Positions 41,352-55,145 of a stretch of 64,000 bases of DNA are shown here, piece by piece. A program made the position numbers and the translations under genes. Each line of letters opens with the position of its first letter. Within the stretch, counting starts at the first letter, position 1. This DNA is from an uncultured Clostridia bacterium (lineage in GTDB: Bacteria; Bacillota; Clostridia; Oscillospirales; UMGS1783). The DNA is taken from positions 9,168 through 73,167 of the forward strand of contig CALKPL010000037.1 in the NCBI GenBank assembly GCA_937991645.1. Reading direction: 5' to 3'. The notes below the pieces were generated by a model. It saw only the letters and a program-made list of their open reading frames with translations. It was not told the DNA's origin and did not search any database.

Positions 41352-41429
41352 CGGGGTGTAGCTCAGTTTGGTATGAGTGCTTGGTTCGGGACCAAGAGGC
41401 CGTGAGTTCGAGTCTCACCACTCCGACCA
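41352..41429 (+). tRNA. tRNA-Pro (anticodon CGG)
   Basis: The cloverleaf folds by hand. Acceptor CGGGGTG/CACTCCG, D stem GCTC/GAGT, and anticodon stem CTTGG/CCAAG with loop TTCGGGA. T arm GTGAG-TTCGAGT-CTCAC, discriminator A, and an encoded CCA. Confidence 0.9.
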
Positions 41430-41434
41430 CGAAA

Positions 41435-41475
41435 TGCGGTAGTCCATGATACAATGGGCTACCGCACTTTTTTAT
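41435..41475 (+). terminator. rho-independent terminator after tRNA-Pro
   Basis: TGCGGTAG..CCAT / ATGG..CTACCGCA stem followed by CTTTTTTATTT. Confidence 0.7.
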
Positions 41476-41773
41476 TTATCTGCCGAGAAAGTCCTTATAT
41501 CAAGCGATTTTCCGAGTGTGGGGGTGCAAAAGTCCTCAATGCTCGGATTTTTCTATTTTACCGGAAGCGAGCTGCTGATTTTTGCTTTGCACCCCCTTAT
41601 GGGAAAAATCAAAAAGTAGATAGGTTTATCAAAAGGTTGCAGAGAAAAATCAAATTGTTCCTTGACATTTATTTGCTACGCTTTTCCTCTTCCCCAGGGA
41701 GAGTCAATGTTCCTGCTGACTTTGATACAATAGAAAAAGCCTTCTCCGGGGTCAAAACCGCCGAAAAGGCATA

Positions 41774-41820
41774 AAACAAGGGCTTTCGAGGTCAAATACT
41801 GACTTCGAAAGCCCTTGTTT
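41774..41820. terminator. long bidirectional hairpin terminating the defence operon
   Basis: 21-bp stem AAACAAGGGCTTTCGAGGTCA / TGACTTCGAAAGCCCTTGTTT with one G-U pair and loop AATAC. T-rich on both sides. Confidence 0.7.
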
Positions 41821-41950
41821 GCTTTATTCAGTTGTGGATTTCTGCCATTCCAAAGCCTGACGGCACCGTAGGGTGTAAGTCTTGCGGTGTATGGATTTTG
41901 GAATAATTAAAAGGTATGGCATAATTAAAAGGTTTAGCGCCTTTTTTCGT

Positions 41951-42136
41951 TTATTCCTTATTGTCGGTGCCCTCTACATAATCGGCCAGGCAAGCCTCCA
42001 GAAGCATTCTTGTGACGTCTGTGTAAGCAAGGATTTTTCCCTGGGCATACATATCATCGTCTTTTGCGTCCTTCAGCTTCGTCATTTCGGTATCGATTTG
42101 AGCCTTGATAAACTTAATAACATCAATTTTTTCCAT
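41951..42136 (-). CDS. 61-aa acidic hypothetical protein, last gene of the defence operon
   Basis: ATG 42136 lies 5 nt after the stop of the 511-aa gene. The GGAGGA RBS sits inside that gene's last codons. No recognisable motif. Confidence 0.5.
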   Translation of the reverse strand: MEKIDVIKFIKAQIDTEMTKLKDAKDDDMYAQGKILAYTDVTRMLLEACLADYVEGTDNKE

Positions 42137-42141
42137 TGCAA

Positions 42142-43677
42142 TTATTCCTCCGGCGGGTCAAAATCTTCATCCGTGCATTTGCGGATAATATGCTTAGTGC
42201 GGTCAAGCGGCAGAGGCACGTCCTCCTCTGCGAAATACTCCACCTTCACTACCGCTGCTGCGGAGTGGTGGTTATCCTTGCCCACGGGTACAATCACATA
42301 ATCGCCAACGGAAATATCGTCCTCATCGGCAATGTAATAATAACTTTTGTAGCCTTCGTCAAATTCCACGCTACAGTAGATATAATCGGTTCTGCGGCGC
42401 TTGACCTTCTCATAGACCGCAGGATTGAGTATTTCCCCCATTCCGTAGAAACGCATAAACTGCCATACGGATTCAGCAAAATCGCTCCAGAGCTCCGGAA
42501 GAGCCTTCTTGTCATATGTTCCTTGGATGACACGCTGCGGTCCTTTCTTGAAGTCCACTGTGATCGTGTAATCTATGGTTTCAAGCGGATTGTCTACCGC
42601 ATCATCCGGGTTGCCCTCAATCTCGCCAAACAGGTCATCGGCATCAATATCATTGAGCAGGCCTTCAACGCCACCCTGGACATAGTATTTTCTGGACACA
42701 GCACAACCGCTGCCGATGTTCTGAATATGCTCCAAGGTCTCACTTTTACGGTCAAGCACCAATCTCTCGGTGTAGTCCCAAGTCACATATTCAACGGTTT
42801 CGGAGATCGGCTGCTTCGGCTTCATTTTGGTAATGCGGTGATAATCGATGGTGACGCGGTCAACTCTGTCTGGCTTGTTATTGCCGTCAAACACATAAAG
42901 GTCATCCATTTCGACTGCTTCTCGCACCATATCCGACAGGTCAACGCCATCCACTTCAAAATCAGCAATCAACGAGCCACGGTACTTATAAATATCTCCC
43001 TCGGTGTTGGTGATCTCCATCTCCCATTCACCGATATCGGTAGCAAAAACCTCAATGTACTCAGTGCTGAAATATCGTGCTATGCTGTTCAGCACTTTTG
43101 TGGCGCTTTCCTTTTCAATTTTATAAATTTTGCTCCTGGACTTTTCATGTCCATCAAAGCCAGAGCCAAAGTTGTATGCTGAGAACCATATGCGCCCATC
43201 GGCGTTGATGGTGATATGCTGTTCAACCTCGTCATCTGGTTCAGGCGGTGGGCCATAGCAGATATTATTGGAAACGATGCGCACCTTCTGCGGAGTGCCT
43301 TTAAACCGCTTCATGTGACATTCTGCTAATTCGCCCAGGCGGGATAGAGCCATCGTAAACCACGCACGGTTCTTCAGCTCCAAAATTTCCTCACCAGAAT
43401 ATGCCCAATGATTGAAATACCGCCATCGGGAGTAAATAGCCGATCCGAGCAAAGGAATATCAGTTATCTCCCCGATGATGCGTTCCAGTGCCTCAAAATC
43501 GTTTGCAGCTTTGCCGTACTTCTCAGAAAAGGCATGACCGCAGTCCATTACGAACCCAAGTGCCTCACAGTCATCAGCCATATAATGGTCTACCAGTTCA
43601 ATGTAGGTGGTTTTCTTATTTCTGAATTTGTCATACCACTTGACTGCAAATTCGTGGATTTGCTTCATGTCCGCCAC
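42142..43677 (-). CDS. 511-aa hypothetical protein, no recognisable domain
   Basis: Long ORF whose codon usage matches its neighbours. GTG start 7 nt after GGGAGGTG. No Walker, HEXXH or nuclease motifs and no TM helices were seen by eye. Confidence 0.7.
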   Translation of the reverse strand: MADMKQIHEFAVKWYDKFRNKKTTYIELVDHYMADDCEALGFVMDCGHAFSEKYGKAANDFEALERIIGEITDIPLLGSAIYSRWRYFNHWAYSGEEILELKNRAWFTMALSRLGELAECHMKRFKGTPQKVRIVSNNICYGPPPEPDDEVEQHITINADGRIWFSAYNFGSGFDGHEKSRSKIYKIEKESATKVLNSIARYFSTEYIEVFATDIGEWEMEITNTEGDIYKYRGSLIADFEVDGVDLSDMVREAVEMDDLYVFDGNNKPDRVDRVTIDYHRITKMKPKQPISETVEYVTWDYTERLVLDRKSETLEHIQNIGSGCAVSRKYYVQGGVEGLLNDIDADDLFGEIEGNPDDAVDNPLETIDYTITVDFKKGPQRVIQGTYDKKALPELWSDFAESVWQFMRFYGMGEILNPAVYEKVKRRRTDYIYCSVEFDEGYKSYYYIADEDDISVGDYVIVPVGKDNHHSAAAVVKVEYFAEEDVPLPLDRTKHIIRKCTDEDFDPPEE

Positions 43678-43720
43678 TGCAGTACACCTCCCATCATTTT
43701 ATAAAGTTGACCGTTCTTTT

Positions 43721-45034
43721 TTAACAGAATGCGCTCATAAACTCTTGTTCCGAAACTTTCATCATTGAGACAAATCCAGCATAATCAGTAGCGTCCATGG
43801 GTATTTTCAATCCGTGCTTGGTTATGCTGATATCTTCCCGTGGGATAACATTCGCCTCATAGGTAGAGCCGCGATTCATTCGCAATCTCAGACCCTCGGA
43901 GTTTTCTGCTTCGGGATAGAGATAATAACCCGTTTGAGCATCGAAGCGGAACATATAGGCAAGTACCTGCAGATAGTCCCGGTTGCCGATATTATCGATT
44001 GGTTTATATTTTGCATCAGCAATCACTCGCTTTTCGCTGTTACGGCTGATGAAATCAGGGTAAATAAGACCCACATTTCCTTCGAAGAGTCTCTGTGCGC
44101 CTTTTCCGCCTTTATTCATTGGGTGGTAGAACACGTCATCAATGAGAGAATTGATGTACTCCTCCCAAAGCCATGCACCGTCAAACAGGATGCCGTATAT
44201 TTGTCTTGTTCCTGTACCGATTTGGTGCTTTTGGTGCCGCAGAATAAGCAGGCACAGTCTCTGCAATGCATGGTACTCTCGGTAATACGCATGGCGGACG
44301 GTATTCTTTTTGTTCTGTTCAATGATTTTCTGCCTGTTATACGGCTCATATCCCGGAGTCGCATCTATAACGAGTTTTACCTCGTCTTTCACTTTGGTAA
44401 GAAGTTTATTTCCGTAAGGCTTTCTTTTGATAAACTCTATGGTATGCCGCACCAGCTCCATCAGACTATTATCGTAGGAAAACTCTCTCTGGCTGTATGC
44501 AACATTTCCTACAAATGGGGTATTCTCCTCGATATGTCTTGCGACATCAATCGTGCCTTTTACATTTCCATCATTGTACCTACGGCGGATATATTTTTTG
44601 AACAACCCCTTCCGCATAGCTGCCTTGAGGTAATACGGAAACAGAAACAGCAGAAAATTGAACAGCCGATTGTCTTGATTGGCATCGGAGTTCAAATCTA
44701 CGATGTTTGGAAAGTCCAGGACTTTATCTAAAAGATACTGGAAAAAGTAATCCTCACCCTCTCCGCAAAAACGGGACGCGATCACAAGCCGCTCATCACC
44801 ATAGCCGAGAAAACCCATCACATTGCCAGAACGAAAGGTGTCATTGATGCTTTGGAGGATCATCTGATCTTGGGTAATATCCTCTGCATCTTTTACGGTT
44901 TCTGGAAATACGAATACACCTTCACGCTCAAGCTGTTCCAACGTTTTATCTGCAATTTTACCTGCCAGCTTCGCTACTTGAGAAAAGGCATCTTTTTTCT
45001 GTTGGGAGTTATCCTTGATCCTGAGTAGCTTCAT
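43721..45034 (-). CDS. mcrC: McrC-like type IV restriction endonuclease subunit
   Basis: PD-(D/E)xK signature LIYPDFISRNSEKRVIADAKYK. Immediately downstream of mcrB and overlapping it. Start is ambiguous (45034, 45040 or 45079). Confidence 0.85.
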   Translation of the reverse strand: MKLLRIKDNSQQKKDAFSQVAKLAGKIADKTLEQLEREGVFVFPETVKDAEDITQDQMILQSINDTFRSGNVMGFLGYGDERLVIASRFCGEGEDYFFQYLLDKVLDFPNIVDLNSDANQDNRLFNFLLFLFPYYLKAAMRKGLFKKYIRRRYNDGNVKGTIDVARHIEENTPFVGNVAYSQREFSYDNSLMELVRHTIEFIKRKPYGNKLLTKVKDEVKLVIDATPGYEPYNRQKIIEQNKKNTVRHAYYREYHALQRLCLLILRHQKHQIGTGTRQIYGILFDGAWLWEEYINSLIDDVFYHPMNKGGKGAQRLFEGNVGLIYPDFISRNSEKRVIADAKYKPIDNIGNRDYLQVLAYMFRFDAQTGYYLYPEAENSEGLRLRMNRGSTYEANVIPREDISITKHGLKIPMDATDYAGFVSMMKVSEQEFMSAFC

Positions 45035-47105
45035 GTACATCACCTCTGGACTGTCGCTGATAGCCATATGCCTTTGCAAACCGTTTCATAATCCCTTCCT
45101 CATCGTACATACCCTGAATGTATTCCTGGAGGAGCGGTTGCAGATAATCCGTCCAAAGCTGGTCAAAGTCCAGTGTTTTCAGCTTCAGGAAGTAAGAAGC
45201 ACCGATTTGATAATTCTCATTCAAATCCTCAACGGCAGCAATTTCCTTGTTAAGGGCAGCCATTCTTCTGATTGCTTCAGCCTCCAACTCCTCGTTTTCC
45301 AGCAAGGCCAGCATCTCAAGGCGTTCGTCTGCCCGAAGCTCCACAAAGCGGAAACGACGGCGCATAGCAAAATCGAAGCTATCCACAGAACGGTCAATAT
45401 CATTCATCGTGCCGATGATATAGACGTTTTCGGGAATGTAGAACTTTTCATCCGGGTTGGGGTGCAGATTGGAATACTGCGTAGATATCTCACCGGATCT
45501 TCCACGATAACCAGGGTCGATGGCAAAGAACAGTTCACCGAAGATTTTAGATATTTCACCACGGTTAATCTCATCGATGATGAAAATGAATTTTTTCAAT
45601 TCGGTCTGTTTTGCATGAATCTTGGAACCGGTAGCTTTTCTCGCCTTGATGGCTTTGTAGATAGCGAAGTCGTAGGAGTATGCCTGCGTTGCGAAGGACT
45701 TTCCGAAGAAGGACGTGATGTCCTTGATTTTCTCGAACCGAAGACCGGACTCCAACATTCTCCGAACCTCATCAAGATTTAGTGCGAGTTTGTTAACCGT
45801 TGCATTGCCAGGGATAGAGATATTAATGTGGCTGTCATCTACGCTTACGATGGTAAATTCATTGCCATTGATGGTTTTGAAGGAATCAACGCCCAATTCC
45901 AGGCTGGCGAAAAATTCTGCCATTGCTTCCTGAACTGAGAGTTCCTTTTCGACCGTTTCTTTGGATTTCTGTGAATCCTCGTAGTTCTTTCTGGCGCGAG
46001 TAACAAACTTTTTGAAAATGCCGTCCTGCAGTTCAAAACCCATAGTACCGTCATCGTTGACCCTCGGTCTCAAACCTTCAACAAAATCAGAGTAATCGTA
46101 GCTCGGATGGAACTGGACGAATTCCACCTGTCTCTTCTGCTCATCTGTCAGCAGGGTGTAATCGTCAAAATATCCGTTGCTGATAATATCCGCAGCGATT
46201 TCCTTTGCAAGGTAAGACTTGCCAGTACCCGGAGCGCCTCTGAAGATCAGATTTTTAGATTCAATCAGCATAGAGGAGAACGGATTCCTGTATCCTTTGA
46301 ACTGCTGAACCAATTCCTCTTGGGCAGCGGCTTCTGCCTCCTCGACAACAGTTTCTTTTTCATCTTTTTCTCGGTATGTCAGTACAAACTGGTCTCCCGG
46401 TTCACCGAACCGCTTCAAGCATTCCTGAACGAAACTAATTGTGGAGAAGATATTCCAACAGTAAATGACGAACTGACGGCCGTTGTCATAACCGTAGGTC
46501 ATGTATTCTATGGTCTTGCGGTGCTTTTTGTATTCATCGACACTTGCAAAGATGCCGCAAATCATCTCACTGTCCGGGTTGTATTTGCATACAGGAAAAC
46601 TCTCCTTATCCTCAACAGACAAAGATGCAATCTGCTTTTCAAAAACCTGGCAGGCGATGCGAGGCAGGGTCTGATTGGAATTTCTTCTCTCACCCTTGCT
46701 GTAGGCGCGCTTGATCACCTCGCCAGTTGCCTTTTTGAAGGAGACATCAAGGGGCTTATAGTTGTCACCTAGGCTGATATTATCCATCGTGAACCGCTCG
46801 TCTGTAGATACCACACTTTCGGCGGTGATGGACAGTTCGAACTTTTCCTGCTGCTTTGTCTCAATAGTAAAGCCCTGGCCTTCCAGAAAGCTTTTTGCTT
46901 CTACGGCATTAAAGCCGTCCGTAGAAATATTTGTTCCGTTTGCCAAATAGTCAGCAACAGCCACTACATATTTCGGTGGATACCGCTTTCCGTCATCGGT
47001 TACAAGTTCGTATTTTGTGCTTTGATTATGAAAAGGGACACCATTCTCATCGATGTATTTTAAGGCATCCATGACGTATTCCTTTTTGAATTTTGGTATA
47101 GCCAT
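45009..47105 (-). CDS. mcrB: McrB-like AAA+ GTPase with about 290 aa of N-terminal putative DNA-recognition region
   Basis: Walker A FRGAPGTGKSYLAKEIA, Walker B FIFIIDEINRGEISKIFGELF, and the McrB signature IIGTMNDIDRS. The N-terminus contains GKRYPPKYVVAVA. Confidence 0.9.
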   Translation of the reverse strand: MAIPKFKKEYVMDALKYIDENGVPFHNQSTKYELVTDDGKRYPPKYVVAVADYLANGTNISTDGFNAVEAKSFLEGQGFTIETKQQEKFELSITAESVVSTDERFTMDNISLGDNYKPLDVSFKKATGEVIKRAYSKGERRNSNQTLPRIACQVFEKQIASLSVEDKESFPVCKYNPDSEMICGIFASVDEYKKHRKTIEYMTYGYDNGRQFVIYCWNIFSTISFVQECLKRFGEPGDQFVLTYREKDEKETVVEEAEAAAQEELVQQFKGYRNPFSSMLIESKNLIFRGAPGTGKSYLAKEIAADIISNGYFDDYTLLTDEQKRQVEFVQFHPSYDYSDFVEGLRPRVNDDGTMGFELQDGIFKKFVTRARKNYEDSQKSKETVEKELSVQEAMAEFFASLELGVDSFKTINGNEFTIVSVDDSHINISIPGNATVNKLALNLDEVRRMLESGLRFEKIKDITSFFGKSFATQAYSYDFAIYKAIKARKATGSKIHAKQTELKKFIFIIDEINRGEISKIFGELFFAIDPGYRGRSGEISTQYSNLHPNPDEKFYIPENVYIIGTMNDIDRSVDSFDFAMRRRFRFVELRADERLEMLALLENEELEAEAIRRMAALNKEIAAVEDLNENYQIGASYFLKLKTLDFDQLWTDYLQPLLQEYIQGMYDEEGIMKRFAKAYGYQRQSRGDVHEATQDQG

Positions 47106-47132: not shown

Positions 47133-48635
47133 TTACAGCCTTTGCTTTGTGCCGAGAGGGGGAACGCCAATCTCGGTTAAAAACGCATTGCAGGTTTCAA
47201 TGTCCTGCTGATAAAAACCTGTGAACAGGTACTTATAAGCCTCTTGTTCTTTGTCGCCATCAACAAAGGTCATTCCACCGAGCCTCAACACCTCTTGCAT
47301 CTCTTGTAGATCCAATCCCAAACCAACTCCCATTGCTATCAGCGGGCGCATCGTAAATTTGTGCGTTTCGCCCTGTACGCGGGAGAAGTTCATTTTGTCC
47401 AACCCCGTTTTGCTTTCAAATGTATACTCGTACCAGTTCTCTTCGGCCATGCGTTTTTTCATCCATGCTGCGGGAGTAGTAGCAGTGGCCTGTGCGCGCT
47501 TTAGTTTTTTCTCAAAATCCTTCGCCTTATTGAATAGTTCCGTATTCTGCGTATTCGCATCATAGGCGGATTCTGTGTTAAAAACACTATCAGATCGGAA
47601 CATCATTTGAGAGGCTCCGTGCATCAAGCTGTCAGGAATCAGCTTGATAGAGAAATCAAGTGTACATTCAGCAAGATGCTCTTTTGCATAAGGCGTCATT
47701 GATTTGACGCCATTTCCAGCATCAAACAAATAACGGTCATCATTCAGAACGAAATATCCCTCGGAAAAGCAGAATACGCCTGTATCTAATGTCGCACGTA
47801 ACAAATCATTTTCACGATACAGCTTAAACGCATCGAGCGGTGAAATGGGGCGTTGATGCCGTTTCGCTTGCGTCGCCTTACGATGCTGAATTTGACTCGC
47901 AGGAGCGTTGGATTCACCCGCACAATATGCCTCAGCTTCACCATATCCCAATTCATACATTCGTATGGCAGCTGACTGTCGGGACACTTCAAAAAAATCT
48001 GCTACATTGTCGATTACATATTCAGTTACGATGCTACGGTCTGCGTTTGGATTATCTGCAAGAAGCACCTGGTAAATATGGTCGACCTTTTTCTTGAATG
48101 CGGTTCGTGGCATGAGTATTTTGGGTGCAATTGTTTTTGCCTGCCACTCCATTTTATCAATATCAGACCACTGTCCACCGATCAAGCTCCCGGTAGTTGA
48201 AATTCCTCTGTTACAGCGGAATGCAAACTCTGTCCCATTTTCATGGTTTCGCTTGTAATTAAAGTAATTCCGATGCCGCCACCAATGGAAGCATTCATGA
48301 GCCAAAGTATTATTGAACCGTCCGATATTCATGATATCTGCATCAACGAAAATCGAAGGTTGTGACACCTCATATCCGATGGTTTCTTCGGCAGACCAGT
48401 CATACACTTCAATGATGCCCTTCGTAAATGCGATGGCACCTTGAACACTACCATCGAATGACAAATACTCCGTATCAATGATTTCCAGAGACATAAGCCT
48501 TGTGGCAATATCCCGGATCGGTATGGGTCTGGGATTGTCTATGGCATCAGCGCATTCGTATTTTGTCAGAAATGCCTCGGCTTCTTTTTCATAATCAGCC
48601 ACATAATGCATAAATGGGTTTGCAGCCTTTGCCAT
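47133..48635 (-). CDS. ImmA/IrrE-type (Peptidase_M78/DUF955) zinc metallopeptidase with a long uncharacterised C-terminal region
   Basis: HEXXH motif in NNTLAHECFHWWRH. About 350 further residues end in an Xre-HTH-like segment (RPLIAMGVGLGLDLQEMQEVLRLGGMTF). ATG 48635 follows AGGAGG, 18 nt after the hsdR stop. Confidence 0.75.
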   Translation of the reverse strand: MAKAANPFMHYVADYEKEAEAFLTKYECADAIDNPRPIPIRDIATRLMSLEIIDTEYLSFDGSVQGAIAFTKGIIEVYDWSAEETIGYEVSQPSIFVDADIMNIGRFNNTLAHECFHWWRHRNYFNYKRNHENGTEFAFRCNRGISTTGSLIGGQWSDIDKMEWQAKTIAPKILMPRTAFKKKVDHIYQVLLADNPNADRSIVTEYVIDNVADFFEVSRQSAAIRMYELGYGEAEAYCAGESNAPASQIQHRKATQAKRHQRPISPLDAFKLYRENDLLRATLDTGVFCFSEGYFVLNDDRYLFDAGNGVKSMTPYAKEHLAECTLDFSIKLIPDSLMHGASQMMFRSDSVFNTESAYDANTQNTELFNKAKDFEKKLKRAQATATTPAAWMKKRMAEENWYEYTFESKTGLDKMNFSRVQGETHKFTMRPLIAMGVGLGLDLQEMQEVLRLGGMTFVDGDKEQEAYKYLFTGFYQQDIETCNAFLTEIGVPPLGTKQRL

Positions 48636-48653
48636 AGACAGCCTCCTAACCAA

Positions 48654-51650
48654 TTAGTCTGTTTGCGTTCCTTCGCGCAGGATTCGATAGATTTCTGTCA
48701 TAAAGACATTTGCAAATTTCGCACGAATTTCCTCGTTATTGAGGAGTAGCGTATAGAAATCCGCATTCTGGTCATAACCTTCAACCAATGCGTCCTGGAC
48801 ACAGTCGTCATAGGTGAACTTGAACTCGTTGAGGGTGTTGTTTTTTGCACTCTTTTCAAGACGCTCTTTGAGTGCAGCGTTCTTCAAAAGTAGGTCACGA
48901 ATCTGCATGGCGGCTTTCGTAGTGAAATCCGGCTCGTAGTCCTTATCGTACAGGGCGTTAACCTCATCGATAATCTGGGAGAGGAGCTTTTTCTGTTCCT
49001 CCTCAAGACTTGCAGGCTTCGGTTTCTTGATTTTCACTTCAGGCTTGGCTTCGATTTCCTCGCCCTGGTGCTTTTCCAGCTGCTTCTGTCTGAAATCGCT
49101 GACGGTAATTTTATCAGCAATATCAAAGTTGTTTCCACCACCACCGGGGTTCAATTCCTTAATCAAATAAGAAAGGAAATTGTATCGCTTATGGAATTCG
49201 AGGTTTTCATAGGCGGTAGCCTGGATAAGGAAACAATAGCCTTTCAGGAATCGGCGGATGGTAATCTTGATCTCCATCTGCTCCAATTCGGGGCGTTTGG
49301 TAATTTTCTTCAAAGCCCCATCCAATAACGACCACATACGCTGCTTGTCCCGTGCTGTGCGGTTATCCTTGTAGAGGTATGTATTGAATTCATCAACATC
49401 GTCCGCATCAAGGAAGTCATACGCATCAATTTCACGATCCATGTCACGAATATCGGACGGAGAAATTGTTTCAAAAAGGATGGTGTCTTTGTAATACGGC
49501 TCAAATGCCGCTTTGATATCATCGTAGCTGTTTTTAAAGTCCAACACAAAGGTAGTCTTATCGTAAGGCGGACAAATTCTGTTCAGTCGAGAGAGGGTCT
49601 GGACGGCCTGAACTCCACGCAGGCGCTTGTCCACATACATTGCCACCAGTCTCGGCTGGTCAAAGCCAGTCTGATACTTATCTGCAACGATAAGCACTTG
49701 ATAACAACTGCGGTCAAACTCGTAACGCAGGTCTTCCTCTTTGAAACCGTTCATGCCGGTTTCAGTGTATTCCTTGTCGTCCAGTTTGACCTTGCCAGAG
49801 AATGCCACCAGAGCCTGAATGCCCGTATAGCCACGCGCCTGAATATACCGTTCAAATTCCTGGCGGTATTTTACAGCAGCCGGGCGAGAAGAAGTGATAA
49901 CCATAGCCTTTGCCTTACCACCAAGGCACCCGGCCACATTTGCTCTGAAATGCTCAATGATGATTTCGACCTTCTGTGCGATGTTGGTATCATGCAGGTC
50001 GATAAAGCGAGCCATCTTACGCTTTGCGGCGATAGACTGGAGTTCCGGGTCATCCTGGATTGCCTTATTGATATGGCAGTAAGTTTTCCAGGTCACATAG
50101 TTGTCCAAAACATTAAGGATATAGCCCTCCTCAATGGCTTGCTTCATAGAATACAGATCGAAGGATTCCTTCTTACCTTCAGCGTTCAGAGTGCCGAAAA
50201 GCTGAAGGGTATCCGGCTTCGGTGTAGCAGTAAAGGCAATCATAGAAACATTGCTCTGCTTGCCACTCTTCTGGATTTCCTCAAGCATCTTGTCTTCTTC
50301 AGTCTTTTCCTCCTCGTCCTCCTCATTGGCGAGGACATTGGTTACGGACTGCATATAGACACCCTCAGTAGAAGAATGTGCCTCGTCAATCAGTACAGCA
50401 AACTTCTTGCCCTTAAGGTTTCCGAGCAGATTGTTGTTGAGAATGTAATAGAATTTATGAATGGTGGTAACAACGATCTTAGTGTTGCCGCCGAGTGCGA
50501 TAGCCAGGTCCTCGGAATCGCACCTATCATCCATAACCTTGACCTGTCCGCTTTTGTGCTCGATGCCGAGAATGGCCTCTTGCAGCTGACGGTCAACAAT
50601 GATACGGTCAGTGATAATCAGCACCGTATCAAAAATATTTTCATTGGCGGCATCGTGAACCGTCGCGAGAATGTGAGCAAGCCAGGAAATGGTTTCGGTC
50701 TTGCCGCTGCCCGCAGAATGTTCAATAAGGTAATTGCAGGAGGTGTGGTTCTCGATAACATCGTTCATAACCCGCTCAACAGCACGAAGCTGATGGAAAC
50801 GTGGGAAAATGAGCACCTTGGACTTTTTGATTTTGCCGGTATCAGCATCCTTGCGCTCTTTCTTTTTGATATAGATGAAACGCTCGATGAGGAACAGGAT
50901 TTTATCCTTCGTCCAGATGTTCTCCCACATATAGGAGACGTTCACGCCGTTCTGATTGTGGGGATTTCCCTTGCCGAAGTTTTCACCAATGTTGAACGGA
51001 TTGAAGAAGGTATCGGGGCCCTTCAGTTCCGTGGTGAAATACACTTCATTCAGGTCCATGGCAAACGCAGCAAATACGCCAACCCTGCTCTTGAAAAGGC
51101 GGGTGGAAGGATCGCGCTCATTCTTGTACTGCTTAATGGCGTCCTCGTAGCTTTGACCGGAGGTGTTGCATTTCAGTTCAACTGTGAAGATAGCCAAGCC
51201 ATTCAGAAAAATAACGAGGTCAATGCGTTCGTCAGCCTTGTGATATACCTCTTCCATTACGGAGAAGATATTTTTTCGGTAGTTCGCAACAGCCTGGGTG
51301 TTGATGGTGCTGTCCGGCTTGCGATACATCAGCCGAAGGGTAACACCATTATCGAACTCTACGCCGTGCTTGATAACATCGATCAGGCCACGGCTTTCCT
51401 TGTTGATTTCCGAGTTGATGTAATTAATGACCGTATCGTTGGTGCGGTCTTTATACATACGGCGCAGACGCTCCATTTCATCGTGCTGCGTATCCTCCAG
51501 AAACTCAAGCAGGACTTCGGTATCCATTGCCAACCCAGGCTTATAGGCTGTGTTGGGACGGATACGGAATTTGTTATCCTCTTCCAAACGCTCCAGAATC
51601 AACTTTTGGAAATCTTCTTTTTCTCTCAGCTGGTCTGCTCTGATAGGCAT
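48654..51650 (-). CDS. hsdR: type I restriction enzyme R subunit
   Basis: 998 aa. Helicase motif I HSAGSGKTETISW, motif II VLIDEAHSS, and later motifs VAFSGK and QTGFDQP. Confidence 0.95.
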   Translation of the reverse strand: MPIRADQLREKEDFQKLILERLEEDNKFRIRPNTAYKPGLAMDTEVLLEFLEDTQHDEMERLRRMYKDRTNDTVINYINSEINKESRGLIDVIKHGVEFDNGVTLRLMYRKPDSTINTQAVANYRKNIFSVMEEVYHKADERIDLVIFLNGLAIFTVELKCNTSGQSYEDAIKQYKNERDPSTRLFKSRVGVFAAFAMDLNEVYFTTELKGPDTFFNPFNIGENFGKGNPHNQNGVNVSYMWENIWTKDKILFLIERFIYIKKKERKDADTGKIKKSKVLIFPRFHQLRAVERVMNDVIENHTSCNYLIEHSAGSGKTETISWLAHILATVHDAANENIFDTVLIITDRIIVDRQLQEAILGIEHKSGQVKVMDDRCDSEDLAIALGGNTKIVVTTIHKFYYILNNNLLGNLKGKKFAVLIDEAHSSTEGVYMQSVTNVLANEEDEEEKTEEDKMLEEIQKSGKQSNVSMIAFTATPKPDTLQLFGTLNAEGKKESFDLYSMKQAIEEGYILNVLDNYVTWKTYCHINKAIQDDPELQSIAAKRKMARFIDLHDTNIAQKVEIIIEHFRANVAGCLGGKAKAMVITSSRPAAVKYRQEFERYIQARGYTGIQALVAFSGKVKLDDKEYTETGMNGFKEEDLRYEFDRSCYQVLIVADKYQTGFDQPRLVAMYVDKRLRGVQAVQTLSRLNRICPPYDKTTFVLDFKNSYDDIKAAFEPYYKDTILFETISPSDIRDMDREIDAYDFLDADDVDEFNTYLYKDNRTARDKQRMWSLLDGALKKITKRPELEQMEIKITIRRFLKGYCFLIQATAYENLEFHKRYNFLSYLIKELNPGGGGNNFDIADKITVSDFRQKQLEKHQGEEIEAKPEVKIKKPKPASLEEEQKKLLSQIIDEVNALYDKDYEPDFTTKAAMQIRDLLLKNAALKERLEKSAKNNTLNEFKFTYDDCVQDALVEGYDQNADFYTLLLNNEEIRAKFANVFMTEIYRILREGTQTD

Positions 51651-51651
51651 A

Positions 51652-52983
51652 TTACCGAACCTCCTTTACTCGTTTTTTGCCTGTGACATACTCAAATATT
51701 ACGGCAGCCATATGATTTTGCATGGTAAGCAGCTGACGCTCCTTTTCCGCAATAGTTGCATCAATAAGTGCCGTTTTATAGTCCAGCTCTGCTACTATAG
51801 CATCTTGCTCTTCTAACGGAGGAACAGAGATATTCTGTTTCTTCAAAATGCTGAACGGAGGGATATTTTTTATAGCACTACCGTTGCTATATTTTTCATT
51901 CATATATTCCAGTGCAACATCGAATAAGTAAATAAAATAAGATTTATTGAACCCATCTTTTATTCTTACCCTCATCAATGCCTGATTGATAATACCCGGC
52001 TCAATGTTGTCTGGTAGAACATAACACTTACCAATAGTGCCTGCGCAACTCACTATTATGTCGCCAGGAGCAACAGAAAAGTCCTTAAGTCCTCTATAAT
52101 CTTCGTAGGATAGATAATACCACCCCAGCGAAGCATCGCCCTGAATTGCATTCTTTTGCTCATAGACCTTAAAGGTGTTTTCACCCTTTTCTATAAACAT
52201 ATCGACAGTTACAGCACTTCCAAAGGGACCTTTTTTGTAAGTTGCGATATCCTGCATACGAAGGATTTCCCAATGTTCGGGAGTCGCTCCGCACCACTCT
52301 ATATGGCTATTCTTTTTCTGCACATCGGGGTTCAAACCGTGTGTAACAACTTCTGAAATATAAGTTTTTTTATATTTTTTCAGCAATGCAAGTTGTGCTT
52401 CCAGTTCAGTGATGATAGCCTGCAACTTTCCGCAATGAACATCCAAATAGTCTGCAATGGCTTCCTGTTCGGCATAATCTGGAAACGCATACAAAAATTC
52501 CGCAAAATCTCCTTGGTACAGATGCACAATTGTACTGTTGCCAGCATTTTTGTAGTTAAACCAGTTCCAAAACTCATCGGATTTAATCACCCAATAGAGA
52601 AACCGCTGGCTATATCCTTCGATAGGTACAATACGAAGAACGCCGCTATTAAGTGATGTTTCACCCGGCATATTCGTTACAATAGCAACCTTACCAATAG
52701 TACCGTCTTTGGTAATCAACAGATCGCCTTCCTGAATTTGAATATCCGTAGCTTCTTCCCAACGCTTCATAGGAACATGAACACAATTTTCCCAATCAAT
52801 ACCACCGTCAGCAAAATCAACTCCGGTGATAAGATATGCGCCCTCGTCCTGGTACTCTTCGGATGTCAATCCTTGCCATCCAATGCGTCCCTTCAACGTT
52901 GCCATATATTTAATTCGCTTGGTGTTCCAGGCAGTTGGAATTTCTCCAATCCACTGGATGCCAGTCTGTCTCATCTCTTCCAT
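51652..52983 (-). CDS. hsdS: type I R-M specificity subunit
   Basis: 443 aa with two target-recognition domains separated by coiled-coil conserved regions (LEAQLALLKKYKKTYISEV ... EKERQLLTMQNHMAAVIFEYVTG). Confidence 0.9.
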   Translation of the reverse strand: MEEMRQTGIQWIGEIPTAWNTKRIKYMATLKGRIGWQGLTSEEYQDEGAYLITGVDFADGGIDWENCVHVPMKRWEEATDIQIQEGDLLITKDGTIGKVAIVTNMPGETSLNSGVLRIVPIEGYSQRFLYWVIKSDEFWNWFNYKNAGNSTIVHLYQGDFAEFLYAFPDYAEQEAIADYLDVHCGKLQAIITELEAQLALLKKYKKTYISEVVTHGLNPDVQKKNSHIEWCGATPEHWEILRMQDIATYKKGPFGSAVTVDMFIEKGENTFKVYEQKNAIQGDASLGWYYLSYEDYRGLKDFSVAPGDIIVSCAGTIGKCYVLPDNIEPGIINQALMRVRIKDGFNKSYFIYLFDVALEYMNEKYSNGSAIKNIPPFSILKKQNISVPPLEEQDAIVAELDYKTALIDATIAEKERQLLTMQNHMAAVIFEYVTGKKRVKEVR

Positions 52984-55145
52984 TATTCTGCCCCTTTCTG
53001 CAAGGCAGCAATTTTTGCAGTAAGCGAAGACTCCAATTCCATGAATTGCGCCAGCAGATCATCAGCCTTTTCGGGCTCATGGTACACATAGAAATACCTG
53101 GTGAACGGGAATTCCGCACCCAATTTCTCTTTATTGGTAGCACTCTCCGCTTTGCTTTCGTCAAAGTCATAGAAGTAAATCGCATCCGGAATATGCGGAT
53201 ACACTTCAGCATCCATATAAGCCTTCTCGTCCTGATTGAGGCGAATAATTTCCGTGTCTTTTGTTGTCGGGTCGATAATCACACGGCCTTTTCTGTCCTT
53301 CTGGACAACAGCGGTCTTGTCAATAAACGACAGTTCCATGGCAATGCCGTTGAGACGAGAATCCGACATACCCTCAATACCTGCGAGAGCCTTTTTCAGT
53401 ACTGCTACGAATTTGGAAAAATCATCGTATTCCTTGTCAGACTCCTGCGCCTTCAACGCCTCAATTACAGCAGCAGTAAAGGTGCGACCCTTAATCTGCT
53501 TCTGATATGCCTTTTCGTCAGTAGCGTCACGAGGATCGGTCTGCTCCAATTCCTCAAATTTAGCTTCATTGAAAATGTTGGTATTGGCGGTGAAATAAGC
53601 GCTGGTACGAAGTGCCTCAATAGAAGCCGCATTGATAACACCACGGCGCTGTAAGGGCTGGTACACAGACCACTCCTTATACAGGAATTCCTCTCGGTCA
53701 AAAATCTTGCTCTCAATAACGCATTCGTGCTTGCGCTTTTCGCACCACTGAGTCTTTCTACCAGGTGCAAAATCCGCATAGATCTCAGTGATAAGGGTAA
53801 TCTGCTCCTTGGAGATTTCTCTACGCTTTTTGCCAAGAGAACGCTTCAGAGGAGTCCACATATCGGTTGCATCGATAAGCTGAACCTTGCCCTTGCGTTC
53901 TTTACGCTTGCCCTTGGACAAAATGAACGCATAGATTGCAATATCGGTATTGTAGAACAACTGAGAAGGCAGACCGATAATGGCTTCTATAAGATCATTC
54001 TCAAGCAGGTATCTTCTAATCTGGCTTTCACCACTTGTGGTATTGCCGGAAAACAGAGGAGAACCATTTGTGATAATAGCAGCTCTACCAACGCCTTTCT
54101 GCATTTTTGCAACGGCGTGCTGCATAAACAGCAATTGCATATCACCGGTTGTAGGCAATCCCGCCGGGAACCTGCCATTATTGCCTTTCTTGTATTCTTT
54201 GCGCACCGCTTTTTCAACACCATCGCCGGCATCTTTGCCGCCCCAAGCCTCACCAAAAGGTGGGTTGGCAATGACAAAACGCATGGAGGTATCTTCAAAG
54301 CAGTCCTCCTTCATGGTGTCAGCAAAGCGGATGTTTTCTGCAGTCTGGTTCTTAATCAGCATATCCGCAAGGCAGATAGCATGGGATTCAGGGCTGTTCT
54401 CCTGTCCGAACAGGCGCACATTGGCGTCCGGGTTCATACGCACGATGAAATCGTGTGCGGTAGAAAGCATACCGCCAGTACCGCAGGCCATGTCCAATAC
54501 GGTGATTTCTCTGCCTTCGGAGAAAATATCACTGCAACCTTCAGCAAGCAGAATGCTGGTGAGGAGGCGGATAACTTCACGAGGGGTGTAGTGATCGCCC
54601 GCAGACGCATTTTCAGAAAAGCGGCGGATGATTTCCTCGAACATATAGCCCATCTTGACATTATCGACTTTTTCGGGGTCGAGTTCGAGTTCAGAGAACT
54701 TTTTGACAACACCCAACAGTCGGTTATTTTTGTCGAGATTTTTGATTTCTTCCTTAAACTTCAGTTCTTCAAAAATTGCTTGGACATTCGGAGAGAAGGA
54801 CTCAATGTAAAAAGTCAGATTCTCTACGATGGCAGGTGCTTCGGTAAGCAGTTTCTTCAAATCAAATTCACAGGTATTGTAGAACTGATAGCCAGATTTT
54901 TTGCACAGCAACTGTGCAGGAGCCGCGGGGTTCTTCTTGAATGCGTCAACCACAGCCTTCTTTTTAGGCGCAAGAGCACACTCCAACCGGCGCAGGATAA
55001 TCATGGGAATGATGACATCCTTGTACTTGTCCGGCTTATAAGGACCACGCAGCGTATTTGCAATGGAGAATACCATGGCGATTTCTTTGGACGCATCTAT
55101 CGTTTTGTCGTCCATCATTACTTCGGTGATTTTTGTCTGTGCCAT
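52983..55145 (-). CDS. hsdM: type I R-M N6-adenine DNA methyltransferase subunit (long form, 720 aa)
   Basis: HsdM N-domain, SAM motif LDMACGTGGML and catalytic motif FVIANPPFG. About 230 aa of C-terminal extension. Confidence 0.95.
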   Translation of the reverse strand: MAQTKITEVMMDDKTIDASKEIAMVFSIANTLRGPYKPDKYKDVIIPMIILRRLECALAPKKKAVVDAFKKNPAAPAQLLCKKSGYQFYNTCEFDLKKLLTEAPAIVENLTFYIESFSPNVQAIFEELKFKEEIKNLDKNNRLLGVVKKFSELELDPEKVDNVKMGYMFEEIIRRFSENASAGDHYTPREVIRLLTSILLAEGCSDIFSEGREITVLDMACGTGGMLSTAHDFIVRMNPDANVRLFGQENSPESHAICLADMLIKNQTAENIRFADTMKEDCFEDTSMRFVIANPPFGEAWGGKDAGDGVEKAVRKEYKKGNNGRFPAGLPTTGDMQLLFMQHAVAKMQKGVGRAAIITNGSPLFSGNTTSGESQIRRYLLENDLIEAIIGLPSQLFYNTDIAIYAFILSKGKRKERKGKVQLIDATDMWTPLKRSLGKKRREISKEQITLITEIYADFAPGRKTQWCEKRKHECVIESKIFDREEFLYKEWSVYQPLQRRGVINAASIEALRTSAYFTANTNIFNEAKFEELEQTDPRDATDEKAYQKQIKGRTFTAAVIEALKAQESDKEYDDFSKFVAVLKKALAGIEGMSDSRLNGIAMELSFIDKTAVVQKDRKGRVIIDPTTKDTEIIRLNQDEKAYMDAEVYPHIPDAIYFYDFDESKAESATNKEKLGAEFPFTRYFYVYHEPEKADDLLAQFMELESSLTAKIAALQKGAE

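Follow-up and report, generated by a model that had tools for sequence, protein, structure and literature searches.

Introduction

What does a large protein without recognisable domains do at the end of a bacterial defence operon, and does it need the very small protein encoded immediately behind it? The locus that raises this question lies in a 64,000-nucleotide (nt) stretch of DNA from an uncultured Clostridia bacterium (GTDB lineage Bacteria; Bacillota; Clostridia; Oscillospirales; UMGS1783; NCBI GenBank assembly GCA_937991645.1, contig CALKPL010000037.1, positions 9,168 to 73,167 of the forward strand), the whole of which we call the window. Two genes, for proteins of 511 and 61 amino acids (aa), close a 13-kb minus-strand operon whose order is HsdM-HsdS-HsdR, M78 peptidase, McrB, McrC, 511-aa protein, 61-aa protein. 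A first-pass annotation of the window, made from the sequence alone, had proposed that the two proteins form an effector/immunity or sensor/adaptor pair.

We find that the 511-aa protein belongs to a large family that is unnamed and undescribed, whose N-terminal and middle modules have no recognisable relatives and which sits in a familiar place, the defence cargo of prophages. Tentatively, and with somewhat less than even confidence, we favour the reading that it is a non-enzymatic binding protein (a sensor, adaptor or regulator) working with the adjacent nuclease, and that the 61-aa protein is a clade-specific helper.

Results

Both open reading frames (ORFs) named in the first-pass annotation are present on the minus strand. 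The 511-aa ORF spans 42142–43677, from a GTG start to a TAA stop at 42142–42144, and its translation begins MADMKQ..., an N-terminus that agrees with those of its homologues; the translated ORF of the 61-aa protein spans 41951–42136. The ribosome-binding site (RBS) of the larger gene, GGGAGGTG, stands 7 nt 5' of the GTG, in a minus-strand segment (43678–43692) that is the only 5' sequence common to related phages in megablast comparisons. The translational coupling described earlier is confirmed from the sequence: in reverse complement, the junction (42137–42153, minus strand) reads ...CCG CCG GAG GAA TAA TTGCA ATG, with the GGAGG of the 61-aa gene (42147–42151) inside the final codons of the 511-aa gene and the TTGCA spacer setting the stop 5 nt from the ATG at 42136. 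Two related loci with about 80% nucleotide identity (L048 and L052) keep this layout, as stop, 6 nt, ATG. The 61-aa gene differs from its counterpart in L048 (about 81% nucleotide identity) at 21 synonymous and 8 non-synonymous codons, and because of this 21:8 ratio we count it, on codon comparison, as a real gene under purifying selection; the same comparison of the 511-aa gene gives 180 synonymous and 84 non-synonymous differences.

The 61-aa protein is acidic, as had been noted (isoelectric point (pI) 4.55, net charge −5), and has no family or PDB match. In a set of 5.8 billion sequences it accounts for only 21 clusters, whose members share 79% identity or more with it. In every context examined, its gene lies directly 3' of a 511-aa homologue that is itself behind HsdR-McrB-McrC, including a lineage with a different, EVE-domain McrB; the DNA beyond it varies, and holds chromosomal genes in some cases, a serine recombinase or the lysis genes of a prophage in others. 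Co-occurrence across the 511-aa family, in contrast, is not seen. No 61-aa relative is present in any of the 26 other species-level homologue loci, a phylogenetically non-independent set from which all neighbour counts below are taken, without a genome-wide background control. The homologue P0001, which is 91% identical to the window protein and falls in the same 90% cluster, is followed instead by an unrelated 180-aa gene. The idea that the genes found downstream elsewhere in the family (about 100–270 aa) are divergent forms of a single partner was rejected, since all-against-all BLAST left them mostly as singletons and their Pfam matches were heterogeneous. Family members of about 570 aa likewise do not join the two proteins of the pair in one chain: what extends them is an unrelated segment rich in Cys, and a phmmer comparison with the 61-aa protein gives no match. 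Because it accounts for 21 clusters against the 2,238 of the large family, and is absent beside 26 homologues including relatives about 90% identical, the 61-aa protein is best described, from its distribution, as a lineage-specific accessory rather than an obligate partner of the 511-aa family.

This distribution bears directly on the proposed pair, that is, a toxic 511-aa effector with a 61-aa immunity protein or antitoxin, or a dedicated sensor/adaptor pair, acting as a two-gene system. There is a likeness to type II toxin-antitoxin and effector-immunity systems in that two genes are coupled and one product is small and acidic. The coupling is conserved, the small gene is under purifying selection, and it has never been seen without a 511-aa gene upstream. 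In four loci encoding P0277 (L052–L055) frameshifts have split the 511-aa homologue (295 + 179 aa) or shortened it (476 aa) and the 61-aa gene is intact at 85% identity, which is the decay expected of a toxin and antitoxin; as HsdR is in fragments at these loci too, decay possibly affects the entire block. However, the small partner is missing from almost the whole 511-aa family, and the gene behind a 91%-identical homologue is a different one, which argues that the large protein is not intrinsically toxic. It shows no toxin domain or toxin-like catalytic motif, and the large-first, small-second order and the mere 21 clusters are unlike a conserved system. What stands of the original proposal is thus two real, coupled genes in a defence operon; the two-gene system itself we consider highly improbable.

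The 511-aa protein, by comparison with its partner, is widespread. It has 811 matches in a database clustered at 90% identity, the best 120 of which are all full-length at 64–100% identity, and at 50% identity the family comprises its 2,238 clusters, 456 of them with an expect value (E) below 1e-30. The exact sequence is deposited as a 'hypothetical protein' (WP_347503059.1) and occurs on 762 contigs; homologues come chiefly from Clostridia, with some from Lactobacillaceae and Bacillaceae. The earlier observation that no known signature is visible held up: neither protein of the pair matches anything above threshold in Pfam, NCBIfam, PHROG, PADLOC or the PDB sequences, profiles built from the whole family and from its N and C modules find no known relatives above threshold, and we found no description of the family in the literature. 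Neither protein is homologous to McrB or McrC, which the upstream genes do match (AAA_5/McrB and McrBC family), and the 511-aa protein is not a third McrBC subunit by homology or by constant co-occurrence. Conservation within the family does not point to an active site, in that there is no invariant His or Cys and no invariant residue of catalytic type; the near-invariant positions are mostly aromatic or aliphatic, the few charged or polar ones being Q153, S248, R252, E304, R310, D459 and K495. Some family members carry C-terminal additions (P0013, P0204, P0006/P0007/P0056/P0088 and P0099), which are a Macro domain (core 80% identical), a GNAT acetyltransferase, a Cys-rich segment of about 60 aa and an acidic helical segment of about 115 aa; the Cys-rich one, with its CP...C...CCxCxxH pattern, probably binds zinc.

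An AlphaFold2 model of the 511-aa protein, computed from an 89-sequence alignment, is confident (predicted local distance difference test score 94.1, predicted template modelling score 0.78) and divides the chain into four modules, all encoded on the minus strand. The N module (residues 1–122; 43312–43677) is predicted to be all-helical, with eight helices, and the alignment shows the conserved motifs LLGSAI, WRY..HW and NR.WF..A..RL in it. Middle module 1 (residues 123–265, domain 129–255; 42883–43311) and middle module 2 (residues 266–415, domain 272–408; 42433–42882) are both modelled as four strands, a helix, two or three strands and a helix, in the same order of elements. The internal similarity of two middle segments that the first-pass annotation had noticed is therefore borne out by the predicted structure but only marginally by sequence profiles, since hhalign aligns module 1 with module 2 over 83 columns at E 0.015 and a probability of 3%. 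The C module (residues 416–511; 42145–42432) is modelled as a small beta-barrel (432–482) and a tail; the barrel is exactly the segment, YIYCSV...VKVEYF, that had been singled out earlier as a compact C-terminal module, and it carries a KOW-like GDxVxVPxG motif followed by a conserved tail, P.P..K.K.IIRK. Every module is acidic (−12 and −10 for the two middle ones), giving the whole protein a net charge of −38 and a pI of 4.7.

The N, first middle and C modules are each found apart from the full-length protein. Short family forms of about 390 aa do without the N module, which alone makes up proteins of 119–130 aa, for instance in an integrative and conjugative element (ICE); middle module 1 alone forms a 147-aa protein of Evtepia phage NatCom_42594 (hmmsearch E 1e-45); and several other genomes (L033, L034 and L038) match the C-terminal part alone. 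In one case the N module is joined to a nuclease. A 460-aa 'restriction endonuclease' of Butyrivibrio proteoclasticus plasmid pCY186 (L080, 88129–89511; WP_013283110) consists of the N module (37% identity, E 2e-22), a stretch that is KOW-like and recalls the C module (E 0.004), and Mrr_cat, and its gene is directly 5' of a Type I restriction-modification (R-M) operon that holds two more Mrr_cat genes.

Structural comparison assigns the C module, on the strength of the model, to a KOW/SH3-like barrel common to small phage proteins. It matches many phage proteins of 63–150 aa in BFVD (probability 1.0, template modelling (TM) score 0.4–0.82), one of them labelled 'Primosomal protein N', and 12 of 30 family C-terminal domains match phrog_3489 (best E 4e-5); family members also match phrog_20007 and phrog_4760, which like phrog_3489 have no assigned function. 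It aligns weakly with the KOW region of L24, and Pfam yields no KOW or PriA_3primeBD match for it. The likeness to KOW and PriA-3'BD SH3-like barrels and to the phrog_3489 proteins lies in the GDxVxVPxG...V pattern on a small barrel; that to PriA in particular, suggested by the single BFVD label, is presumptive. For the full model and for the middle modules alone, Foldseek finds no convincing analogue in the PDB. The best matches of the middle modules, to SsgA-like 3cm1 (probability 0.91–0.95) and to PURA repeats I–II (0.2–0.4), are weak, the superpositions having TM scores of 0.27 or less, root-mean-square deviations of 14 Å or more and E 3e-3 at best. The middle modules' run of beta-beta-beta-beta-alpha and then beta-beta(-beta)-alpha recalls Whirly, PUR and SsgA-like folds in topology only, and they differ from these in being acidic, not basic. 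Foldseek matches to a sliding clamp, GFP and a beta-propeller were rejected, with probabilities below 0.15.

These hints could be taken to mean that the 511-aa protein serves the mobile element outside any conflict, either as an accessory of the serine recombinase, such as a directionality factor, or as a factor for replication restart or the handling of single-stranded DNA (ssDNA). Besides the primosomal label and the weak SsgA-like and PUR-like resemblances, the proximity of serine recombinases would fit, as they lie a few genes away in the window (a remnant) and in the contexts of P0001, P0022 and P0079. Resolvase-family matches within four genes on each side are few in the 26 loci, however (three upstream, three downstream), and the acidic charge disfavours DNA binding. 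Nor is the gene part of the core of Candidatus (Ca.) Heliusvirales, the phages that the window prophage resembles: it is not one of their nine marker genes, which include an exonuclease, an ssDNA-binding protein, a DNA polymerase and a helicase (PMC11283538), a full-length copy exists in only three phage records, and in the window it sits in low-GC cargo. We regard such a housekeeping function as quite improbable.

The neighbourhoods of the family point in another direction. The 511-aa gene usually follows a co-directional gene closely: the distance is no more than about 45 nt in most of the 26 loci (43 nt separate it from McrC in the window), and in 15 of the 26 the gene at position −1 encodes a predicted nuclease: YhcG_C in 6, GmrSD_N in 5, GIY-YIG in 2, and McrC and DUF4268 in 1 each. 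Nucleases are concentrated at the adjoining positions rather than spread across −4 to −2, with 6 of 7 YhcG and all 5 GmrSD matches among the four upstream genes lying at −1, and all three Mrr_cat matches among the four downstream genes at +1; in about 10 of the 26 loci no nuclease is recognisable at −1. McrC itself holds the −1 position in the window clade, in L048/L007 and in a single one of the species-level loci, its place otherwise being taken by YhcG, GmrSD, GIY-YIG or others. Such exchange occurs even among close relatives: 511-aa proteins that are at least 80% identical to one another stand behind McrC (of two types), behind a 630-aa M78 homologue or behind a 79-aa ORF, and swapping of the upstream gene is likewise seen within a clade of about 65% identity. 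The wider neighbourhoods contain R-M genes, Mrr, GmrSD, Abi_alpha, HEPN, SIR2, RES, Fic, DUF4238 and serine recombinases. By guilt by association, and in unrelated genomes, the 511-aa family is thus a defence-island gene.

The gene also moves as a unit. Megablast alignments with three phages, NatCom_21982, NatCom_35866 and NatCom_11393 (87–88% identity), start at 42138–42147 and end at 43692–43706 (42147–43692 for NatCom_21982), and because the common DNA is the gene and at most about 30 nt on each side, the conserved unit lacks a promoter of its own and relies on read-through from upstream. The INPHARED collection holds 3 full-length and 5 partial copies among 50,697 phage records, all from gut temperate phages; the replication module of the window element matches 10 INPHARED records. 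One partial match was found among 72,556 plasmids, and a single-sequence scan of viral contigs found the family on 13 IMG/VR contigs or loci, often near contig ends.

It is this mobility that makes an independent moron a possible, if unlikely, alternative: a single gene for abortive infection, superinfection exclusion or another form of lysogenic conversion, placed in a recombination hotspot, with the 61-aa gene as a hitch-hiker. Conserved neighbours are lacking on both sides, phages exchange the gene as a gene-sized mosaic unit, a nuclease at −1 cannot be recognised in about 10 of the 26 loci, and solitary copies exist that are flanked by opposite-strand genes (L010, L017 and L035). Against this, the exchanged unit has no promoter and keeps operon-like spacing to the upstream gene in most loci, nucleases gather at the adjacent positions and not across the neighbourhood, the N module and an Mrr nuclease occur in one fused protein, and no effector domain that could act alone is visible.

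The charge of the protein suggests a further alternative, in which an acidic, multi-module binder protects the element by inhibiting or restraining the nucleases of the host or of rivals, or the element's own Type IV enzymes during establishment, much as do anti-restriction proteins or the polyvalent proteins that phages and conjugative elements encode. Like ArdA and Ocr, which are DNA mimics, and like polyvalent proteins, the 511-aa protein is acidic, modular and borne on mobile elements, with Macro and GNAT fusions in some members that are typical of conflict proteins. Each module is strongly acidic, the family travels on phages and ICEs, small proteins of phages or ICEs consist of its N, first middle or C module alone, and the several unrelated nucleases next to it are ones that a DNA mimic could inhibit generically. 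On the other side, it is co-transcribed with, and distal to, the very Type I R-M and McrBC systems that it would have to inhibit, is not similar to ArdA, Ocr or ArdC, nor to those LPD domains that Pfam contains, and is far more conserved (65% identity across orders) than most DNA mimics. It is also nearly absent from plasmids, with the one partial match, and from virulent phages, the eight matching phage records all being of gut temperate phages. Counter-defence is therefore improbable in our judgement.

In the window, the operon upstream of the pair is made up of HsdM (52983–55145), HsdS (51652–52983), HsdR (48654–51650), an M78/CapP-like protein (47133–48653), a McrB-like AAA+ protein (45009–47105) and McrC (43721–45079), all on the minus strand, which substantiates the defence context claimed in the first-pass annotation. 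The M78 gene, between hsdR and mcrB, encodes 506 aa with an M78/ImmA-like HExxH domain and, unlike the pair, has a match in PADLOC-DB v2 (capP, E 1e-10). In other phages, a 630-aa homologue of it (27% identity over the full length) lies directly 5' of the 91%-identical 511-aa homologue; that 630-aa protein is preceded by an Xre-type helix-turn-helix (HTH) protein of 266–272 aa, and the C-terminal halves of the HTH protein and of the M78 protein are homologous. The two look like regulators paired in the manner of CapH/CapP or ImmR/ImmA, with a C-terminal domain in common. In L002, a copy of the operon that is otherwise 99–100% identical, HsdS is 55% identical and HsdM and HsdR are 99% identical, which on sequence comparison is a swap of the specificity subunit inside the same element. 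The McrB-like protein has 698 aa, with an N-terminal region of about 260 residues that has no Pfam match; the related lineage that carries the 61-aa gene has a 798-aa EVE-domain McrB instead, with a shorter McrC (350–352 aa). The McrC ORF as listed, from a TTG at 45079, overlaps mcrB by 71 nt, and other gene callers start it later, giving 437 or 448 aa.

At the other end, the claim that the pair closes the operon is upheld: about 130 nt 3' of the 61-aa gene there is a hairpin (41774–41820, not assigned to a strand) with a perfect 20-bp stem and then a T-run, and beyond it lies a convergent recombinase remnant. The hairpin is likely a bidirectional terminator between the defence operon and the remnant, and its region is 91% identical to a non-coding stretch that adjoins a 541-aa ORF of phage NatCom_9287. 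Just 3' of the 61-aa gene, within 41903–41933, ATAATTAAAAGGT is present twice, 18 nt apart, and similar ACCTTTTAA(C/T) motifs stand 3' of the 61-aa gene in L048 and L052, where the remaining 3' DNA is unrelated; the region with these repeats and the hairpin may hold recombinase or regulatory sites. The remnant (41454–41774, plus strand) is 100% identical to residues 425–530 of a large serine recombinase that L071 has in intact form (530 aa) at the corresponding site, and is thus truncated at its 5' end, directly beside a tRNA-Pro gene (41352–41429); because of the truncation, excision has probably been lost by the window prophage. A Ruminococcus bicirculans genome (L078) contains this 106-aa remnant too.

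The part of the window below about 41.4 kb is ordinary chromosome, encoding RecN, coenzyme A-disulfide reductase, DsbD and a metallo-beta-lactamase-fold protein. From 56 to 64 kb it is 84–85% identical, across 83–94% of the length, to four NatCom phages of Ca. Heliusvirales, and the marker replication genes encoded from 56 kb on include a DUF2800 exonuclease. Judged by these matches, the host of the cargo is a prophage of Ca. Heliusvirales type, of which the window covers the replication part, its structural genes lying outside. The R-M/McrBC block and the pair have a guanine-plus-cytosine (GC) content of 0.45–0.47 against 0.585 for the chromosome, which argues that they are foreign cargo inside the prophage. 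A trio of genes recurs in several elements (L042–L047, L062–L066 and L082–L086) and encodes a YpsA/DprA-like protein (162 aa), an HTH_3 protein (102–104 aa) and a protein of 144–155 aa; it stands just beyond the serine recombinase in the prophage contexts of P0001 and P0022 and also adjoins a solitary N-module gene in an ICE, which suggests a backbone or cargo module common to these phages and ICEs.

Discussion

We propose that the 511-aa protein is an accessory 'conflict' protein of a mobile element, belonging neither to housekeeping nor to any recognisable class of enzyme. It would be transcribed from the distal end of an operon for defence by nucleases, within a prophage of Heliusvirales-like character, and would act on the defence side as a binding protein, whether sensor, adaptor or regulator, with its output delivered by the interchangeable nuclease next to it: McrBC here, and YhcG/DUF1016, GmrSD, GIY-YIG or Mrr elsewhere. 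The outcome would be to keep out phages or other mobile elements that compete. The 61-aa protein would then be a translationally coupled helper, probably binding or tuning the 511-aa protein in its own lineage only. We infer the defence role, the dependence on a nuclease and the contact between the two proteins from gene content and arrangement, and what we count in favour of the reading as a whole is the position in the operon, the tight spacing in other loci, the nucleases upstream, the swapping of neighbours, the fusion of the N module to Mrr, the defence genes further out, the low-GC accessory cargo and the lack of a catalytic signature. The CapP-like M78 protein in the operon, and its 630-aa homologue beside the 91%-identical relative, would fit expression that is regulated by stress or infection.

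There are precedents for such an arrangement. Accessory genes are known in R-M operons, among them guards of the PrrC/RloC type inside hsd loci and the YhcG, RhuM and GmrSD inserts of Type I R-M islands. The 511-aa gene resembles these as an extra cistron co-oriented with hsdMSR and McrBC, on mobile DNA and with variable neighbours, but its product differs in having no anticodon nuclease, ATPase or other effector domain and no sequence similarity to them. A constant sensor or scaffold combined with interchangeable nuclease effectors is also a general design of defence systems, and here a constant gene stands beside unrelated nucleases that are swapped, with one of its modules fused to Mrr. In contrast to those systems, however, the effector here would be a separate gene whose identity is unfixed even among close relatives, and there is no NTPase or signalling enzyme.

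Several observations weigh against the binding-protein reading. The family has no homology to any validated defence protein, and neither member of the pair has a match in PADLOC-DB v2 at E up to 1. The association with nucleases could merely reflect a defence hotspot. A single element lineage appears to account for all five loci with GmrSD, and another for most of those with YhcG. The nucleases are structurally unrelated to one another, and a single protein that couples to all of them is not a parsimonious solution. The acidity of the protein disfavours the nucleic-acid binding hinted at by its Whirly/PUR-like and KOW-like resemblances, of which the former are weak to begin with, at TM scores of 0.27 or less. 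Finally, the occurrence of its modules as small phage proteins is a pattern also known from counter-defence proteins.

If the binding-protein reading is nonetheless carried one step further, the family might be a new class of non-enzymatic 'nuclease companion', which gates or directs unrelated stand-alone nucleases (McrBC, GmrSD, YhcG, GIY-YIG and Mrr). The 511-aa protein could, for instance, sense a phage protein or a counter-defence factor, with small partners such as the 61-aa protein tuning it. This broader form of the idea we hold to be doubtful.

For the locus itself, the label of an uncharacterised defence-island candidate is more apt than that of a conserved two-protein system. Whatever its function, the family offers something of value for annotation, since it has four separable domains without a Pfam model, three of which are also seen apart, and its C-terminal barrel ties it to several PHROGs of unknown function. 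It stands out among many such candidates by its size, its conservation, its confidently predicted structure that nothing matches, and its layout of one constant gene beside variable nucleases. Should it indeed act with neighbouring nucleases, it would account for one conserved gene behind many solitary Type IV-like nucleases and would be a widespread new module in how the prophages of human-gut Firmicutes arm their hosts.

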